The notes under the pieces were generated by a model, which worked only from the letters and a program-made list of their open reading frames with translations, did not search any database and was not told the origin of the DNA. A stretch of 64,000 nucleotides of DNA. Origin: an uncultured Candidatus Saccharibacteria bacterium (GTDB lineage: Bacteria > Patescibacteriota > Minisyncoccia > Phycocordibacterales > UBA9973). Both the position numbers and the translations under genes were made by a program. The DNA is taken from NCBI GenBank assembly GCA_964348725.1, contig CAYGDG010000001.1, positions 65,898 through 129,897 on the forward strand. Reading direction: 5' to 3'. This document shows positions 5,561 to 49,999 of the stretch, one piece after another. Positions within the stretch are counted from its first letter, which is position 1. Every line of letters starts with the position of its first letter.

Positions 5561-5911
5561 ATGAGAACAGCCATATTACAAATTAAGAGAGCGGGAAATA
5601 TGCAGATTGTGAACAATAGCGATCTGTCGCACAAGCTGCTGCGCTTTTTATTGACTTCTCTTGGAGCGTTGGCTCTCTGCTATGCGTTTCTCATCGCTAC
5701 GATGGTATTCAATATCGTCGAGCGCCGCTCTCTGGAAGCTGATGCTCGCGATCTCGGCAATGAAGTCGGCGAGCTCGAGCTCGAATATTTGGCTGCATCA
5801 AATAAAATAGACTTGAATCTCGCGGCATCCATGGGCTTTACTGAAGGCAAGAAGCAGTTCGCCACCCGCACATCACTTGGCAGCTTAAAAGTGGCTACAA
5901 ATGAATTATAG
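5561..5911 (+). CDS. ftsL: Cell division protein FtsL-like
   Basis: Small bitopic protein with one TM helix (LLTSLGALALCYAFLIATMVF) followed by a coiled coil. It sits between rsmH and ftsI. The exact start is uncertain. Confidence 0.55.
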   Translation: MRTAILQIKRAGNMQIVNNSDLSHKLLRFLLTSLGALALCYAFLIATMVFNIVERRSLEADARDLGNEVGELELEYLAASNKIDLNLAASMGFTEGKKQFATRTSLGSLKVATNEL

Positions 5912-7610
5912 TTTTCCGAACCGCACCAAGGTTCTTTCTTTTTTTATACTCCTCTTCGCCCTCACGCTCTCGGCGAAGCTTTTTTTAGTTCAGGTAGTGC
6001 ATTCGAATTCATATTCTGATCGGGCGGATAGGCAATACGCCACGCCGGCATCCGATATTTTTGAACGCGGCACCATTTATTTTACGGATAAAGTCGGCAG
6101 CTTGGTTTCCGCCGCTTCGCAGACGACCGGTTTTAAGGTGGCGCTCGATACGGCAAAGCTGAAAGATAAAGAAAATACATATAAGACATTGTCTGCTAAG
6201 ATACCGCTCAGCCGCGAGGATTTTTTTGCAAAAGCGAATAAAACAAATGACCCATATGAAGAAGTAGCGACGCATATCACTCGTATCCAAGCGGATGCCA
6301 TTTCCGCTGAAAAAATTCCGGGCGTTTCCATCTATAAAGAAAAATGGCGCTTCTATCCAGGCGGCAATTTGGCTTCGCATGCGCTCGGCTTCGTGGGTTA
6401 CAAGGGCGATGAACTCGGCGGCCGCTACGGCCTCGAGCGGCAGTATGATGCCGTGCTTTCCCGTGATGACGAAGGCGCATATGTGAACTTCTTTGCCGAA
6501 GTATTTTCGAATATAAACGATACGATTTTCAAGGGAAGCGAACGCAGCGGCGATGTCGTGACGAGCATTGAGCCCCAGGTGCAAGGCTTTCTCGAGACAA
6601 AACTTTCAGAAGTGCGCACCAAGTATACTGTGGATTCCATCGGAGGCATCATCATGGATCCGATGACGGGAGAAATTTACGCGCTCTCGGCCAAACCGGA
6701 TTATGACCCGAATAATTTTTCGAAGATAAAAAATCCTTCGATCTTTACCGATCCGCTGGTGGAAAATGTCTTTGAATTCGGTTCAGTGGTGAAGCCGCTC
6801 GTCATGGCTGCCGGCCTCGACACTGGTGCGGTGAAAGCAGACACAAAATATACTGACCGCGGCTCTGTCATCGTGGAGAAAAAAGAAATATTCAACTTCG
6901 ACAAGAAAGCGCGCGGCGTGGTGACGATGCAAGATGTCCTCAATCAGTCGCTGAACACCGGCATGGTCTATGTATACCAGCACCTTGGCAAAGAAAAGAT
7001 GCGCGACTATATGCTCTCCTACGGTATCAAAGAAAAGACAGGTATCGATCTACCGAATGAAACCAGTGGCCTCGTGGCGAACTTGAACAGCCCTCGTGAA
7101 CTGGAATACGCGAACGCTTCTTTCGGCCAAGGTATCGCACTCACGCCCATGGAGATGGTCCGCGCGCTGGCATCGCTCGCGAACGGGGGCAATCTCGTTA
7201 CACCGCATATCGTAAAAGAAATAAAATACCCAGATGGCACATCCAAGAAATTTACTTACCCGACGGCACCCACAAAGATCAGCAAGCAGACTTCCGAAGA
7301 GATCACTCGGATGCTGGTAACGGTGATGGATAAGTCGCTCAAAGGCGGCTTGGCCAAGATGGAACATTATTCCATCGGCGTGAAGACCGGTACGGCGCAA
7401 GTTGCCAAGGAAGGCGGCGGAGGATATTATGAAGATAGGCATACGCATTCATTCTTTGGCTATTTGCCCGCGTATGAGCCGCGCTTTATCGTATTCCTGT
7501 ACGCGGTGAATCCGAAGGGCGTACCGTACGCATCACAGACATGGGCCGATCCATTTCTCGATATAGCTAAATTTTTACTTAATTATTACGAAGTCCCTCC
7601 GGACCGATGA
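5901..7610 (+). CDS. ftsI: Penicillin-binding protein 2/3 transpeptidase (FtsI)
   Basis: N-terminal TM helix, SVVK (SxxK), SLN (SxN) and KTGT motifs. Confidence 0.9.
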   Translation: MNYSFPNRTKVLSFFILLFALTLSAKLFLVQVVHSNSYSDRADRQYATPASDIFERGTIYFTDKVGSLVSAASQTTGFKVALDTAKLKDKENTYKTLSAKIPLSREDFFAKANKTNDPYEEVATHITRIQADAISAEKIPGVSIYKEKWRFYPGGNLASHALGFVGYKGDELGGRYGLERQYDAVLSRDDEGAYVNFFAEVFSNINDTIFKGSERSGDVVTSIEPQVQGFLETKLSEVRTKYTVDSIGGIIMDPMTGEIYALSAKPDYDPNNFSKIKNPSIFTDPLVENVFEFGSVVKPLVMAAGLDTGAVKADTKYTDRGSVIVEKKEIFNFDKKARGVVTMQDVLNQSLNTGMVYVYQHLGKEKMRDYMLSYGIKEKTGIDLPNETSGLVANLNSPRELEYANASFGQGIALTPMEMVRALASLANGGNLVTPHIVKEIKYPDGTSKKFTYPTAPTKISKQTSEEITRMLVTVMDKSLKGGLAKMEHYSIGVKTGTAQVAKEGGGGYYEDRHTHSFFGYLPAYEPRFIVFLYAVNPKGVPYASQTWADPFLDIAKFLLNYYEVPPDR

Positions 7611-7643
7611 TGTAGCAACATCATGCCTTGGGCATAAAATAAT

Positions 7644-8948
7644 ATGAAAGAAATATTTAAAAAAACAATCACACATATATTGCGCTGGGAATCCCAGCTC
7701 GTGCTCAAGAAATACAAGCCCAAAGTAGTGGCCATTACCGGCTCGGTAGGCAAGACTTCCACCAAGGATGCCGTCTTTGCTGTGCTTTCCAAGATGGCAT
7801 ATGTCCGAAAGAGCGAAAAGAGCTACAACAGCCAGATCGGCTTGCCGCTTACTATCTTGGGCATTCCGAATGCCTGGAGTGATCCGCTCGGCTGGCTAAA
7901 AAATATCGTCATAGGGTTTTGGCTCATCGTGTGGCCGCACAAGTACCCGGAATGGCTTGTACTCGAAGTCGGCGTCGGTAAGCCGGGCGACATGAAAGAG
8001 ACCGCTTCATGGCTCAAAACGGATGCGGTGATAGAGACGGCTATCGGAGACACACCAGTGCATATAGAATTCTTTCCGTCACGCGAGCATCTCATCGAAG
8101 AAAAAGCCGGACTCATTAAAACCTTAAAAAAAGATGGCACACTTATTTTGAATGGTGATGACGGCGCCATTCTCGGAATGAAAACAAAAAGCGCAAATCG
8201 CGCCGTCACTTACGGTTTCACAGAAGGCACTGATCTTTTTGCTTCCGGCGATACTATCGAATGCGGCAGCGACGGCGAGCCTCTCGGCGCAATATTCCGC
8301 GTGGATGCCGAAGGCAAGAGCCTGCCGGTCATCATCGAAGGCGCATTCGGCAGGAATCATATCTATGCCGCCCTTGCTGCTCTGGCCTTCGCCTACGGAC
8401 AAAAACTCAATATGCTGACCGCAGCCGAGGCTCTCAAGAATTACGAAATGCCGCCGGGCCGGATGCGCTTGCTGACCAGTATCAAGGAAACGCGCATCAT
8501 CGATGATACGTACAATTCTTCTCCGTTTGCCGCGCAGGCTGCGCTTGATACTTTGCAAAGTGTAAAATCAGATGGCCGAAAAAATAGGAAGATTGCCGTT
8601 CTCGGCGACATGCTCGAGCTCGGCAAGCACACGGAAGAAGCACACCGTACTATCGGCGCATTAGCAGCGGAGAGCGCCAAAATACTCATCACCGTCGGTC
8701 CGCGTGCGCAAGGCATCAAGCAAGGCGCATTGGATGCCGGCATGGATGCGAAGAATATTTTTGATTTTGCTGACTCAGTGCAAGCAGGAGTATTCCTCAA
8801 AGACTTTATAAAAAAAGGGGACATCATCCTCATCAAAGGCTCGCAAGGCGTGCGCATGGAGCGTATTTCTGCGGCACTCTTGCAAGATCAGGAAAATCGC
8901 AAAAAATTGCTTGTCCGCCAGGAAGACGAATGGATGGCGAAAGAATAG
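7644..8948 (+). CDS. murF: UDP-MurNAc-tripeptide--D-Ala-D-Ala ligase MurF
   Basis: Mur ligase P-loop VVAITGSVGKTSTKD, MurF-like SYNSQIGLPLTIL, and central and C-terminal Mur ligase domains. Confidence 0.85.
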   Translation: MKEIFKKTITHILRWESQLVLKKYKPKVVAITGSVGKTSTKDAVFAVLSKMAYVRKSEKSYNSQIGLPLTILGIPNAWSDPLGWLKNIVIGFWLIVWPHKYPEWLVLEVGVGKPGDMKETASWLKTDAVIETAIGDTPVHIEFFPSREHLIEEKAGLIKTLKKDGTLILNGDDGAILGMKTKSANRAVTYGFTEGTDLFASGDTIECGSDGEPLGAIFRVDAEGKSLPVIIEGAFGRNHIYAALAALAFAYGQKLNMLTAAEALKNYEMPPGRMRLLTSIKETRIIDDTYNSSPFAAQAALDTLQSVKSDGRKNRKIAVLGDMLELGKHTEEAHRTIGALAAESAKILITVGPRAQGIKQGALDAGMDAKNIFDFADSVQAGVFLKDFIKKGDIILIKGSQGVRMERISAALLQDQENRKKLLVRQEDEWMAKE

Positions 8949-9119
8949 TGTATGTTGCCGATGTGATGTAATTGTATCATTTGCGCTTTCTGCCGAGGCA
9001 GTTTCGAAATGTGAGCGTTCAGCAGATAGAACTAATCTATTCGTTGCCTGGCAAGGTGGAGTATTACTCTCCTAGTATACCAGACCGATCCATCTCGTGC
9101 GTCTCTTAATTCCTCGCAA

Positions 9120-9980
9120 TCATTTTGCTTTGTGCTTATTTAGTAGATAAAGAATATTATTAAGCTCTAGCCATAGGTACACATATTCCTTTTCAGTAAA
9201 ATTTTTTGGCTGACCTCCATTCTCGTGGTGAACATTTTTAATTACATAATCTAGAAAATTCTCAAAGTCAGAATTACTATCGTTAAATAGTATGTTTGAT
9301 AACTGCTTTTTCTCATGGATCCGCGGAAAGGTTCCGTCTGATCTTTTATAGCCATTCTGTAATGTATTTTCCACAACCTTTTTGAGATTATCGAGTGACT
9401 TATTATAAAAAAGTTTATCACTTTTAATTACATCTTTTTTATACAAAAGAAAATCTGAGACACATTCTTGATAGCGAATTTTATTATCACCTTCTAAGTC
9501 CGAATCGTTAGAATTGATTAATCTCGTATTTATCTCGTCAATCTTCCTTCGAAAATCATGATTTTTCTTATCGTAGTAGAAATCAAGATTAAAAACACTA
9601 GGGTTATTTGAACTAGCTATCAAATCAAAAAATTTATAAGTAATCACTGTAAAATCAGATCTTCGTTCATTGGGTATTTTTTGATACTGCCATTCTTCTT
9701 TTCCGAGGTATTGTAAGATGTTTGGTAATATTTCATTAAAAAATGATAAGAAAATTTCTTGCTCACCGTTCAAGTAAGTTTCTGCCAAAAAACTCATTAC
9801 AGGGTACCCATTTCTTTTTTTCTCACTATATTTATATTGAGAATTAATATCATCCGTTAGAATATACCTAATAATATTTTTATTCTCTGCTTCATTAAAT
9901 AAATTACAGGCTGATGCGTAAAAAGATTGATAATCATGAGCAAACTTTTCAAGATTAAGTTTTTGAAATTCATCATTCAT
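9120..9980 (-). CDS. Uncharacterised 286-aa protein, operon partner of the Shedu-like nuclease
   Basis: AT-rich ORF whose start overlaps the stop of the upstream gene by 8 nt (co-operonic). Asn/Lys/Tyr-rich composition and no recognisable motif. Confidence 0.6.
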   Translation of the reverse strand: MNDEFQKLNLEKFAHDYQSFYASACNLFNEAENKNIIRYILTDDINSQYKYSEKKRNGYPVMSFLAETYLNGEQEIFLSFFNEILPNILQYLGKEEWQYQKIPNERRSDFTVITYKFFDLIASSNNPSVFNLDFYYDKKNHDFRRKIDEINTRLINSNDSDLEGDNKIRYQECVSDFLLYKKDVIKSDKLFYNKSLDNLKKVVENTLQNGYKRSDGTFPRIHEKKQLSNILFNDSNSDFENFLDYVIKNVHHENGGQPKNFTEKEYVYLWLELNNILYLLNKHKAK

Positions 9981-11040
9981 ATAATGATTTTAAAAGTTTT
10001 AACTTTGAAATGACTTCATCAAAGGTCAGTATTTGATTCTTGCCTAATGATTTTCGAAATAGATCAAAAGACTTTTTTTGAGTTTCAGAAAGCGAATCGT
10101 ATGTTCCAGCTATTAAGACTCCGCAAGGGTTTAAATGTGTGAGTCCATCAAAATCAGCACCAATTTGAGTATTAAAATATTCTGTAGCAATATGAATTTG
10201 ATTTTCCATTTGAACAACTCCACCCGATAGATCTCCATGAATGCTGTACACTTCATTTTTTTCTCCGGAATCTTTTTCTCCTCGGTAACATGAACCGACA
10301 AGCGAGCAATTTGGCTCTTTAATCTCGACAACCGCAAAACTTCCATTTGAACCATTTTTAAATAAAAAATCAGTTGCAGATCCGCCTGACCCTTGGCGGC
10401 CTTTCGAATTTTTTCCACCTAAATATGTTTCTCCATTTAAGTATATAACGGGATATAAGAAAACTTGTTGCAATACCCACGGACGTTCTTCAAAAAAGGT
10501 TTGCCAAAAAGATTCTTCGTGATTTGAAAGACTAGACTCCATGTCAGCGATAGCTTTTTCAAGTCGAGCACGTCCAATTGCAAGACCTAGATTTTCAAAA
10601 TTGTTATCTTCAAGAGATCGTAACTGTTCAATGACCCATTCTCGATTAGAGATGTCTCCAATTTGTAAAAAAATACCAGGTGCACTTTCTTTCGTTAATG
10701 GAACTACTGTCGTTCCATAGGAATGACCATACTTTGTAAGAGTACTATTAATTTCAGATAACCTACTAAGTAATAAAGATACTTCTTCACCTTTGAGGGA
10801 AAGCTCGTAGCCTTCGTCTGACTTTAACGAGCTGAGTGTTTCATGTTCAATTGTCTCCCAAGTTCCTAAACGGGATTTTCTTTCAAATCTGAATAGGCCT
10901 CTTAACGAGTTGTCTGATTCGCTTACCCAAACAGGTGCAAAGATAAGACGAGATGTACTTGTCTCACGTAGCACAATAGGACTTATGTCCATTGTGGCAT
11001 TTGATGTTGATTTGGTAATTATTCTAGCAAGCATATTCAT
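9973..11040 (-). CDS. Shedu (SduA)/DUF4263-like PD-(D/E)xK nuclease
   Basis: 355 aa. The central segment ESFWQTFFEERPWVLQQVF resembles the DUF4263 N-terminal signature. Putative catalytic residues lie in TDFLF...FAVVEIKEP (D...ExK), and the tail ILTFDEVISKL is typical of the family. AT-rich composition; the gene sits directly downstream of a tRNA. Confidence 0.5.
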   Translation of the reverse strand: MNMLARIITKSTSNATMDISPIVLRETSTSRLIFAPVWVSESDNSLRGLFRFERKSRLGTWETIEHETLSSLKSDEGYELSLKGEEVSLLLSRLSEINSTLTKYGHSYGTTVVPLTKESAPGIFLQIGDISNREWVIEQLRSLEDNNFENLGLAIGRARLEKAIADMESSLSNHEESFWQTFFEERPWVLQQVFLYPVIYLNGETYLGGKNSKGRQGSGGSATDFLFKNGSNGSFAVVEIKEPNCSLVGSCYRGEKDSGEKNEVYSIHGDLSGGVVQMENQIHIATEYFNTQIGADFDGLTHLNPCGVLIAGTYDSLSETQKKSFDLFRKSLGKNQILTFDEVISKLKLLKSLYE

Positions 11041-11067
11041 AATAAAACTTCTCGTGCTAGCACGATA

Positions 11068-11141
11068 CGGTGACCCTACCGGGAATCGAACCCGGATTTA
11101 AGGCTTGAGAAGCCTCCGTCCTAACCGTTAGACGATAGGGC
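11068..11141 (-). tRNA. tRNA-Glu (anticodon CTC)
   Basis: Minus-strand read GGCCCTATCGTCTAACGGTTAGGACGGAGGCTTCTCAAGCCTTAAATCCGGGTTCGATTCCCGGTAGGGTCACC folds as a cloverleaf with anticodon loop TTCTCAA. D arm TCGTCTA..GGTTAGGAC is Glu-like. Confidence 0.85.
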
Positions 11142-11198
11142 CATCGACAGGTGCCTATCATAAACGATAGGCCCAAGTGGAAACATCATATCATTTAC

Positions 11199-11244
11199 AT
11201 AAAAAAAATCAAAAAAAAGAGAGCGTGCCTGGTGGGGCACGCTC
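11199..11244 (-). terminator. Rho-independent terminator (minus strand) after the Gre-like gene
   Basis: Perfect 10-bp stem GAGCGTGCC-TGGT-GGGCACGCTC followed by a T-run on the minus strand. Confidence 0.7.
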
Positions 11245-11275
11245 CTAAAATTAAAACTAATAAAACACATAAAAT

Positions 11276-11809
11276 TTACGCTACCGCTGCACCGGATTCT
11301 TCCGTCTGAAGAGCTAGATCTGCAGTATCTTCTTTCATGATCATCGGCAGTTCTTTTTCTGCGGTCGAATCTGTCAAAAAAGATTTTCCCTTGAACATCT
11401 TCTTTGCTTCAATAGGACCAACGATTTTTGAAATAATTAGGGTGATTTTTTTTCCTGTACCTTCGTGAGTAAAGGATTTCGTTTGTCCTTTACGTCCTCC
11501 AATAAGTGCTTTACCTATGGGGGAACTCTCTGAGGAAACAGAATGATTCTTTGGGAGGCCGTCTCCGTTCAGGGGATAGCCATCGATGATAGTGAAGTAA
11601 TTTTCTGCACCGATCATGAATGCTATCCCGCTTCCGAATTTGGCCACCTTTGTTTGTTCATTTTTCGGGTAAAATTCCGGTGCTGCGACGAGCTTCGAAT
11701 ACAGCCTTTTCTGCTGTTCCGTTGAGTTTGGGTCTTTTAAAAGTTTGCGTGCGTGTTTTTTGGACCAAGGAAGAATCCGTAGGTGTCCAGGAGTTTCATG
11801 ACTGACCAT
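11276..11809 (-). CDS. GreA/GreB-family (Rnk-like) protein with the Gre C-terminal FKBP-like domain only
   Basis: SPIGKALIGGRKGQTKSF...KITLIISKI matches the Gre-factor C-terminal domain. It lacks the N-terminal coiled coil. An upstream TTGACT-N17-TATACT promoter lies on the minus strand. Confidence 0.7.
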   Translation of the reverse strand: MVSHETPGHLRILPWSKKHARKLLKDPNSTEQQKRLYSKLVAAPEFYPKNEQTKVAKFGSGIAFMIGAENYFTIIDGYPLNGDGLPKNHSVSSESSPIGKALIGGRKGQTKSFTHEGTGKKITLIISKIVGPIEAKKMFKGKSFLTDSTAEKELPMIMKEDTADLALQTEESGAAVA

Positions 11810-48456: not shown

Positions 48457-48527
48457 TGGGCGATTAGTTAAGTGGCATAACTGCGGTCTCCAAAACCGCT
48501 GTCGTAGGTTCGATTCCTACATCGCCC
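48457..48527 (+). tRNA. tRNA-Trp (anticodon CCA)
   Basis: GGGCGATTAGTTAAGTGGCATAACTGCGGTCTCCAAAACCGCTGTCGTAGGTTCGATTCCTACATCGCCCG. Anticodon loop CTCCAAA; clean cloverleaf. Confidence 0.85.
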
Positions 48528-48600
48528 GCAAATTCACGATAGGTTATCAGGTACTAGATGCATCGTACAAATAGTTGAAGTATTAAACAAAATTTATTCT

Positions 48601-49413
48601 ATGACGGATCCTTCTACTTTAGAGCCACAAAAAATTAGGTTAGGGATAGAAATCTTGCTAGGAGGAGGATTTTTGGCATATATTTCTCTGCGAGCATTAA
48701 ATATTTACAGAGCAAAGAGAATTTTACCTGTTTCTAAAATTAGATCTCTGGCTGTTGGTCCTGTACATCTTTTAGGTAATTTAATTTCTGATTCTAAATT
48801 GACTGCTTCTATTACCGGAGAAAAAGGGGTTTTAATAGTTTCAGAAATTGAAGTCCTTAAATCAAGAAGATTATGGACACCTATTTTTAGTACTGGGCTA
48901 TGGGATAAACTTTTTATTAAAGATGAAACTGGTACTATTGAAGTTGACCCTCCACTTTTTCAGTATTTTCTCAATCCAGTTTTTAAATATCAAAGTTTTT
49001 CTAAAGTAAAAAAATCTAATACTCTGGATGCTTTTCTAAAAAAAGCTGATTTTTGCCCTCATGTTAGCTTTTTGGGTATAAGAATTCCTAAAATTTATAG
49101 AGTAAGAGAATATGTCATAAAAAATGGCTATCCAATTGAAATATTTGGATATGCTTCAATTCAATCAAAAAAGGATGGATTGACTGTAACGAGTACAGAA
49201 AAAAAGACGCTCATTTTTCAAGAAGTAGGACATAAAGATTTTCCTTATAAATCTTTGTTCTTACTGATTACGGGAGGTGCGTTGGTAGGGGTAGGTATTT
49301 CTACAATAGTATTCGCCACACAAAGTGTTTCTTCTTCTGTTCACGGTTTGCTTATATGGGTAATTGTAGTATTATTAACCCTGTTCGTTTCACTGCATTA
49401 TATATTAAAATAA
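48601..49413 (+). CDS. AT-rich membrane protein (N-terminal TM helix, C-terminal TM helices) upstream of lemA
   Basis: 270 aa with an N-terminal anchor, a soluble middle region and 2 C-terminal TM helices. Confidence 0.55.
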   Translation: MTDPSTLEPQKIRLGIEILLGGGFLAYISLRALNIYRAKRILPVSKIRSLAVGPVHLLGNLISDSKLTASITGEKGVLIVSEIEVLKSRRLWTPIFSTGLWDKLFIKDETGTIEVDPPLFQYFLNPVFKYQSFSKVKKSNTLDAFLKKADFCPHVSFLGIRIPKIYRVREYVIKNGYPIEIFGYASIQSKKDGLTVTSTEKKTLIFQEVGHKDFPYKSLFLLITGGALVGVGISTIVFATQSVSSSVHGLLIWVIVVLLTLFVSLHYILK

Positions 49414-49423
49414 ATATAAATTT

Positions 49424-49999
49424 ATGTTCACACAAATCATTATAACTAGCGTTGTTTTTCTAATCTTAGCTTTTTTATTGTATATGATTACTGTCTTTAA
49501 CAGTTTAAAAGCGGTAAAGAATAATGTGATTAAAGCCGAGGCAAATATAAAAGTTTTATTGAAACAGCGTTTTGATGAGATTCCCCAATTAGTAGAAGTT
49601 TGTAAAAAATACATGGATTATGAGACAAGTGTGTTAAAAGATCTTACTAATCTGAGAAGTGATTTTGAAGAAAAGATTAATAAAAAAGAAGAATTACAAG
49701 TTGAAGAAATAGAGAGTTTTGATGAAGAATTGAGTAATCAAATAGGTAATCTGAAAGCCACCGCTGAAAACTATCCCAACCTGAAGACTTCTGAACAATT
49801 CCTTAACCTACAAATAAGAATTTCTTCTATAGAGGAACAGATAGCAGACAGACGGGAGTTTTTCAACGAAAGTGTGAATGCCTACAATATTAATATAGAA
49901 TCATTTCCAGACATGATTATCTCTTCTATTTTGGGTTATAGAAAGAAAGATATGTTAGATATTTCTGAAAAAGAAAAGGAAATACCAAAGAATTTTTAG
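49424..49999 (+). CDS. lemA: LemA-family protein
   Basis: N-terminal TM helix followed by FNSLKAVKNNVIKAEANIKVLLKQRFDEIPQLVEVCKKYMDYE, the LemA signature. Confidence 0.8.
   Translation: MFTQIIITSVVFLILAFLLYMITVFNSLKAVKNNVIKAEANIKVLLKQRFDEIPQLVEVCKKYMDYETSVLKDLTNLRSDFEEKINKKEELQVEEIESFDEELSNQIGNLKATAENYPNLKTSEQFLNLQIRISSIEEQIADRREFFNESVNAYNINIESFPDMIISSILGYRKKDMLDISEKEKEIPKNF

Follow-up and report, generated by a model that had tools for sequence, protein, structure and literature searches.

A probable tRNA-Glu-anchored defense locus in a Patescibacteria genome, combining a Shedu nuclease gene with a separable gene of a small uncharacterized family

The 64,000-nucleotide stretch of DNA analyzed here, termed the window, belongs to an uncultured Candidatus Saccharibacteria bacterium (contig CAYGDG010000001.1) and harbors, immediately behind a tRNA-Glu gene, two overlapping genes, the first of which encodes the Shedu nuclease SduA and the second a 286-residue protein, hereafter the partner, that is found in other genomes independently of SduA and in synteny with tRNA-Glu. 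With moderate confidence, the arrangement is regarded as a small tRNA-Glu-anchored defense locus of a Patescibacteria (Paceibacteria-type) genome whose two genes are functionally separable. The partner probably represents a small Patescibacteria-only family that usually occupies the slot after tRNA-Glu and is not a subunit of Shedu.

The Shedu gene and its probably separable neighbor

An earlier note, made from the letters of this stretch, had described two co-directional genes with an 8-nucleotide overlap just after tRNA-Glu, sharply richer in A and T than the flanking murF, the first encoding a Shedu/DUF4263-like nuclease with a PD-(D/E)xK core and the second a protein of 286 residues without a recognizable motif, and on each of these points the analysis agreed with it. 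Both genes lie on the minus strand, sduA at 9973-11040 (355 residues) and the partner gene at 9120-9980 (286 residues), and they share the 8 nucleotides ATGAATGA. The ATG of sduA stands 28 nucleotides past the 3' end of tRNA-Glu(CTC), the anchor of the locus (11069-11142, minus strand; found by ARAGORN, and by the Rfam tRNA model with 64 bits). The GC content amounts to 0.364 in sduA and 0.288 in the partner gene, versus 0.506 in murF, 0.492 in the penicillin-binding protein (PBP) gene and 0.451 in the whole window, and the GC content at third codon positions (GC3) is 0.24 and 0.25, respectively. The two-gene island, with a GC content of 0.33 vs 0.45, falls over its 1.9 kb at the 0.8th percentile of equal-size windows (z = -2.9).

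The first protein matched both Shedu domains of Pfam, SduA_N (PF21407; 57.9 bits, E 1.2e-15, cut-off 27) and SduA_C/DUF4263 (PF14082; 73.6 bits, E 2.6e-20, gathering cut-off 27), as well as 16 SduA models of PADLOC, the best being PDLC00399 (E 3.8e-67), and it was aligned over its full length with the structure of Bacillus cereus SduA (PDB 8ti8; E 3.7e-44). Since the alignments to 8ti8 (residues 11-110 to residues 11-113) and to SduA_N begin at residue 11, the long open reading frame (ORF) from 11040 is favored over the 339-residue form that occurs in one public annotation. The motifs quoted in the earlier note proved to be real and to correspond to the elements of the Shedu active site, E176/Q180, D224, E239-x-K241 and Q277, and residues E176, Q180, D224, E239, K241 and Q277 are invariant or nearly so in 23 relatives. 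Their pattern matches the active site of EcSduA, composed of E226, Q230, D269, E283, K285 and Q314 (Loeff et al., bioRxiv 10.1101/2023.08.10.552762), and aligns with B. cereus SduA. More than 100 relatives at 46-89% identity display the same two-domain architecture, and those bearing a name are assigned to Parcubacteria, Saccharibacteria or unclassified bacteria.

Judged by its sequence, gene 1 is a canonical, presumably catalytically intact and probably single-gene Shedu SduA of the B. cereus type, displaying all the features by which Shedu is recognized at this level. It resembles SduA of B. cereus B4264 (PDB 8TI8; PF21407 + PF14082) in the two-domain architecture, the full-length alignment and the motifs E-x3-Q, D, E-x-K and Q, and it is like Shedu generally in being a single polypeptide with its own N-terminal sensor, of a kind found in defense islands and type I restriction-modification (R-M) operons. 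Unlike B. cereus SduA, to which it is about 30-35% identical, it resides in a Patescibacteria host of the candidate phyla radiation (CPR), and its gene starts 28 nucleotides after a tRNA, has no dedicated promoter and shares 8 nucleotides with the gene that follows it. By homology, a homotetramer would be expected, with N-terminal domains that detect invading DNA and a DUF4263 PD-(D/E)xK core that nicks or cleaves it.

SduA probably does not depend on the partner. An 81%-identical SduA is embedded without it in a type I R-M operon of the order HsdM-SduA-HsdS-HsdR (L027:5484-12533; loci of other genomes are denoted by L and a number), an arrangement of a known kind, since 602 of 5,499 Shedu genes are situated inside R-M systems (Gu et al.). 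In this operon sduA sits between hsdM and hsdS and overlaps both, and a serine recombinase gene is located about 3 kb upstream.

The partner found no match in Pfam, PADLOC, NCBIfam, PHROGs or the sequences of the PDB. Its homologues number 34 in a word-indexed search, all of them in Patescibacteria-type bins, and only 40 when 1.84 billion representatives were searched with a profile; pattern scans of metagenomes and genomes yielded few loci, and none was found in phages, plasmids or IMG/VR. One homologue of 68% identity, on a 3-kb contig (L009, JBAZVA010000127.1), is binned as a Woesearchaeota archaeon, for which mis-binning of a Patescibacteria contig is the likeliest cause. In an alignment of 33 sequences the C-terminal half is conserved, Y170, L196, H251, H252 and W270 being invariant or nearly so, and a confident AlphaFold2 model built from 30 sequences is mostly helical (predicted local distance difference test, pLDDT, 86; predicted template modeling score, pTM, 0.76). 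This half is modeled as helical and may adopt a HEPN-like fold with an HH dyad, H251/H252, a weak and as yet unproven assignment. The family profile weakly matched TM1646 (2p61_A, DUF327/YaaR-like; E 8.9e-4) over 74 positions spanning the RY..[CA]V..FL motif, and Pfam DUF327 matched none of the family members. Membership in AbiJ_NTD4 was rejected, as only 1 of 33 members matched, below the cut-off. The partner would act autonomously in an accessory role, perhaps on RNA or as a protein of the defense/toxin type.

The independence of the partner from SduA emerges from its contexts. Homologues stand without SduA in at least ten distinct contexts, and a tblastn search for SduA in 18 partner loci was positive only in window-identical copies. 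tRNA-Glu(CTC) is located 10-40 nucleotides upstream of the partner gene, on the same strand, in L008, L014, L019, L020, L021 and L022, and in L020 and L022 the spacer ahead of the partner (CGTGCTAGCACGAGAA...ATG) is nearly identical to the one ahead of SduA in the window. A 6.7-kb element with a large serine recombinase, Rep, LOOT RNA and AbiD separates tRNA-Glu from the partner in L006. The next closest copy after the pair-bearing clade, that of L016 (87% identical), likewise lacks SduA and is preceded by a serine recombinase, LOOT RNA, an N6/N4 methyltransferase and a 364-residue zinc-ribbon protein. A gene downstream of the partner codes for a GmrSD-type protein in L022 and, in L020, for an OLD/GajA-like ATPase. 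Comparison of these contexts leads to a stable module, consisting of tRNA-Glu, then the partner gene, then a conserved element of about 100 nucleotides, and the positions around the partner collect variable defense and mobile cargo.

Some further observations concern these loci. The 364-residue protein of L016 was considered as a cryptic Shedu-like nuclease and rejected, because the hhalign probability was 0.1%, no PDB, Pfam or PADLOC match was obtained and it looks like a zinc-ribbon protein. The inserts of L006 (1337-7906) and L016 (208-5404) both carry a large serine recombinase and a LOOT RNA (Rfam RF03000; 51 and 82 bits, in each case over the gathering score), so that LOOT RNA in Patescibacteria seems to move along with mobile elements of the serine-recombinase type; the Rep protein of the L006 element is REP_ORF2-G2P. 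In most genomes with enough flank, namely L003, L008, L019, L022, L023 and the window (5901-8948), genes of the division and cell wall (dcw) cluster, be it murF/PBP, mraY-ftsW-murG or ftsA-ftsZ, are situated no more than a few kb from the partner gene. This suggests an old regional synteny in spite of the foreign composition of the partner gene.

The pair itself recurs in just one recent clade, L023-L026, where the closest relative of the window SduA (89% identical) is followed by a 91%-identical partner with the identical 8-nucleotide overlap, in a neighborhood of ftsZ, ftsA and ybeY. Between the window and L023, the ratio of nonsynonymous to synonymous substitution rates (dN/dS) was 0.06 for SduA and 0.10 for the partner, so both genes are under purifying selection. 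SduA and the partner differ in the synonymous rate (dS; 1.06 vs 0.45) and in the identity at third codon positions (0.62 vs 0.83), with a step at the junction, and the dS of the partner to the SduA-less L016 copy is 0.39, about as close as to the L023 copy. This unequal divergence, together with the closeness of L016, would result if SduA had recently been inserted once, ahead of a partner gene already present, and recombination had followed, and is less in keeping with an old co-evolving two-gene system.

We infer from these comparisons the following history. The module that related genomes preserve consists of tRNA-Glu(CTC), a short hairpin spacer, gene 2 and the element of about 100 nucleotides, and variable cargo is found on both sides of gene 2, SduA here and elsewhere a serine-recombinase element carrying AbiD, an element with a methyltransferase, GmrSD or an OLD/GajA-like ATPase. 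In a recent ancestor, SduA would have entered between this spacer and gene 2, creating the 8-nucleotide overlap, and the resulting SduA/gene 2 block would then have moved between divergent hosts. The hexanucleotide ATGAAT opens both ORFs (sduA at 11035-11040, the partner at 9975-9980), and in SduA-less relatives the same conserved spacer runs directly into the ATG[AG]AT of the partner. The shared ATGAAT could be a 6-nucleotide microhomology at the insertion junction or a coincidence; the identity of the two starts is not common to L023.

The tRNA spacer, the distal element and the surroundings

The 28-nucleotide spacer between tRNA-Glu and sduA (11041-11068, minus strand) comprises the palindrome CGTGCTAGCACG followed by GAAGTTTTAT, which reads as a weak terminator or a processing hairpin; the hairpin (11052-11065) has a stem of 5 bp and is accompanied by a short run of T. 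A scan of 8850-11350 returned two promoter-like sites, one being a sigma-70-type promoter with an extended -10 upstream of tRNA-Glu (TTGATT-16-TGaTATGAT; 11185-11212, minus strand) and the other lying within the partner coding sequence, and no promoter directly ahead of sduA or of the partner gene was detected in the scan. Because one promoter precedes the tRNA, the hairpin is weak and neither gene has a promoter before it, tRNA-Glu, sduA and the partner gene are probably co-transcribed as a single unit that starts at the tRNA promoter and continues across a leaky hairpin. The 5' end of tRNA-Glu (11129-11143) is imperfectly repeated (13 of 15 nucleotides) at 11161-11175, 32 nucleotides upstream of the tRNA, in the stretch that separates its promoter from its mature 5' end.

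The distal boundary of the island is formed by the conserved non-coding element of about 100 nucleotides (9000-9109, minus strand), which is located directly 3' of the partner gene. Its motifs run CACGAGAAGG..TC ... TGnTATACT ... GGTTCTATC ... GGCTCAC, among which TGnTATACT, resembling an extended -10, is invariant in close copies, while motifs of the CACGAGAAGG type appear near both ends and the 3' part resembles the T-arm/acceptor end of tRNA-Glu. With an nhmmer profile, the element was located downstream of the partner in the window, L017/18, L020, L021 (6838-6940), L022 (2369-2473) and L023, and also upstream of SduA in L023 and upstream of the partner in L016 (5435-5545). The two copies of L023 (3171-3281 and 5221-5331) thereby bracket the SduA and partner pair, 2,050 nucleotides apart. 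The L022 element repeats the tRNA-3'/spacer sequence of its genome over 21 of 23 nucleotides (z = 10.2), the only clear repeat of this kind. A structured RNA or pseudo-tRNA was considered for the element and rejected, as RNAalifold gave -4.6 kcal/mol with five sequences and no pairs with nine; single-sequence folds yielded z-scores of about 0 to -2, and neither ARAGORN nor Rfam reported a match. It remains a conserved DNA element and not a folded RNA.

As for the remaining surroundings, the flanking gene that the earlier note had called Gre-like does show a GreA_GreB match, but one below the threshold (E 7.5e-4). A second, equally AT-rich block (48458-49999; GC content about 0.30-0.32) is located directly downstream of tRNA-Trp and includes an ORF of 270 residues without a family match (48601-49413) and a LemA-family protein (49424-49999). 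Its interpretation as a paralogous module was discarded, since a comparison with the partner family by hhalign (probability 0.1%) showed no relationship.

Competing readings of the locus

Several observations weigh against a locus of two separable genes built around a long-standing partner. The host gene ybeY, common to the window and L023, is 57% identical vs about 90% for the pair, which implies that the block as a whole moved between divergent hosts; the recurrence of the same overlapping pair in a second host likewise means that the two genes travel together at least sometimes, with their translational coupling kept. The GC3 of the partner, 0.17-0.31, is far under that of the host in every genome, which is odd for a long-standing gene of a locus. 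The contexts inspected amount to about 14 distinct ones, out of a family in which close SduA relatives alone number more than 100. With regard to the HEPN-like part, Foldseek searches of the partner against PDB and BFVD returned nothing significant, the Rx4-6H motif is lacking among the 33 aligned sequences, none of which shows a conserved Arg 4-6 residues upstream, and no HEPN or Abi profile of Pfam or PADLOC matched the window partner.

Among the alternatives, a lineage-specific two-gene Shedu system is considered unlikely, if slightly less so than the others. According to this explanation, SduA acquired an accessory in the window/L023 clade by recruiting the partner, which might serve it as a regulator, as an additional effector or as a brake of the antitoxin kind, and the ATGAATGA overlap would couple the translation of the two genes. 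The identical overlap and the identities of 89% and 91% in two divergent hosts with different neighborhoods would be accounted for, as would the strong purifying selection on both genes, and a precedent exists in KELShedu, a two-component system in which KELA, a 12.6-kDa protein binding double-stranded DNA, is encoded upstream of the nuclease KELB, a DUF4263 protein whose minimal beta-sheet N-terminal domain binds KELA (PMC12577705). The window pair is like KELShedu in being bicistronic with one gene for a DUF4263 nuclease; unlike KELShedu, its additional gene lies downstream and encodes a helical protein of 286 residues, distinguished from KELA by its description, that mostly occurs without Shedu, and its SduA possesses a full SduA_N domain. 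That SduA thus carries its own sensor domain, unlike the minimal KELShedu nuclease, speaks against this explanation, and so do the partner standing alone in most contexts, including the 87%-identical L016 copy without SduA, the close SduA relative (81%) without the partner and the unequal divergence of the two genes. The overlap, for its part, can be explained by simple insertion ahead of the partner, because the latter already sat behind the tRNA.

On the same grounds, the proposal of the earlier note that the pair is a candidate novel two-gene Shedu system was not supported, as the partner occurs without SduA in at least ten contexts and an 81%-identical SduA occurs without the partner. Its further suggestion, that a fused operon partner would be a new architecture, no longer applies, since with KELShedu already published (PMC12577705) a second gene alone does not make one. 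The co-occurrence of partner and DUF4263 genes, which it had recommended checking, was encountered in L023-L026, which speaks in favor of the note, but is absent from the other partner loci inspected, apart from the window-identical copies.

It is also rather improbable, and slightly more so, that the partner is a vertically inherited gene of the host lineage, tied to tRNA-Glu or to the dcw cluster and unconnected with defense, beside which SduA happened to land. The adjacency of tRNA-Glu and partner is kept in six genomes; murF, murG or ftsZ lies within a few kb in the window, L003, L008, L019, L022 and L023; and against L008 and L022 the divergence of the partner (42-48%) is like that of murF (about 44%) and PBP (57%). 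A vertical gene would nevertheless hardly be expected to form so tiny and patchy a family (about 40 clusters among 1.8 billion representatives), to keep strongly AT-rich synonymous sites in every host, to be more conserved than ybeY between the window and L023, and to be embedded so often among defense and mobile genes.

The last alternative, that the whole 2.1-kb block of SduA, partner and 3' element is a classical tRNA-Glu 3' integrative island whose integrase has been lost, would agree with its position at the tRNA 3' end, its foreign composition and the homology of the distal element to the L022 element that repeats tRNA-3'/spacer sequence (21/23 nucleotides), but is highly improbable, because no integrase is present here, the tRNA-3' repeat in the window is not significant (z = 0.9), and distant genomes show the tRNA-partner-element module with no SduA in it, meaning that SduA and the partner originally came in separately. 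Consistent with the absence of both an integrase and a duplicated tRNA end reported in the earlier note, no integrase gene lies within 6-15 kb of the locus, no recombinase is found among the ORFs between tRNA-Glu and murF (only two ORFs are there), and no tRNA-3' duplication in the window exceeds chance by simple similarity. The locus is nonetheless like tRNA-anchored islands in adjoining a tRNA 3' end, in its foreign composition, in its variable defense cargo and in the serine-recombinase elements of its relatives (L006, L016), and unlike them in lacking an integrase or a significant attachment-site repeat and in being bounded on its far side by a conserved accessory gene and the element of about 100 nucleotides instead of a core gene.

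Returning to the reading of a tRNA-Glu-anchored locus with two separable genes, a more specific and tentative proposal may be added for the partner, which we hold to be doubtful: the 286-residue family may be a new group of HEPN-like effectors or sensors, tied to tRNA-Glu(CUC) and equipped with a catalytic HH dyad, that act either as an autonomous single-gene defense or abortive-infection system in CPR bacteria or as a recruited Shedu accessory in the window/L023 clade. Unlike the HEPN proteins of abortive infection and toxin systems (the AbiA C-terminal domain, RnlA/LsoA, HEPN-MNT, AbiD/AbiJ), the partner has neither Rx4-6H, nor a HEPN match in Pfam, nor the support of Foldseek, and unlike in HEPN-MNT toxins no MNT or antitoxin gene adjoins it.

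Meaning for defense in Patescibacteria

The Shedu gene itself is ordinary, providing an instance from CPR bacteria of a single-gene nuclease that has been studied thoroughly, and metagenomes already contain more than 100 close relatives. If the partner had been recruited as its accessory, the pair would constitute a second, unrelated kind of two-gene Shedu.

To our knowledge, the defense biology of CPR bacteria has been little explored. What may have value is the tRNA-Glu site of Patescibacteria, where different defense cargo is repeatedly found beside one conserved, uncharacterized, AT-rich gene, and it is a possibility that the module of tRNA-Glu, partner and 100-nucleotide element is a new integrase-less anchor that captures defense cargo in these bacteria. 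The partner family, being CPR-restricted and tRNA-Glu-linked, is a reasonable candidate for experiments, and a hot spot that recurs together with a fixed marker gene would offer a convenient starting point for mining the defense repertoire of CPR bacteria.

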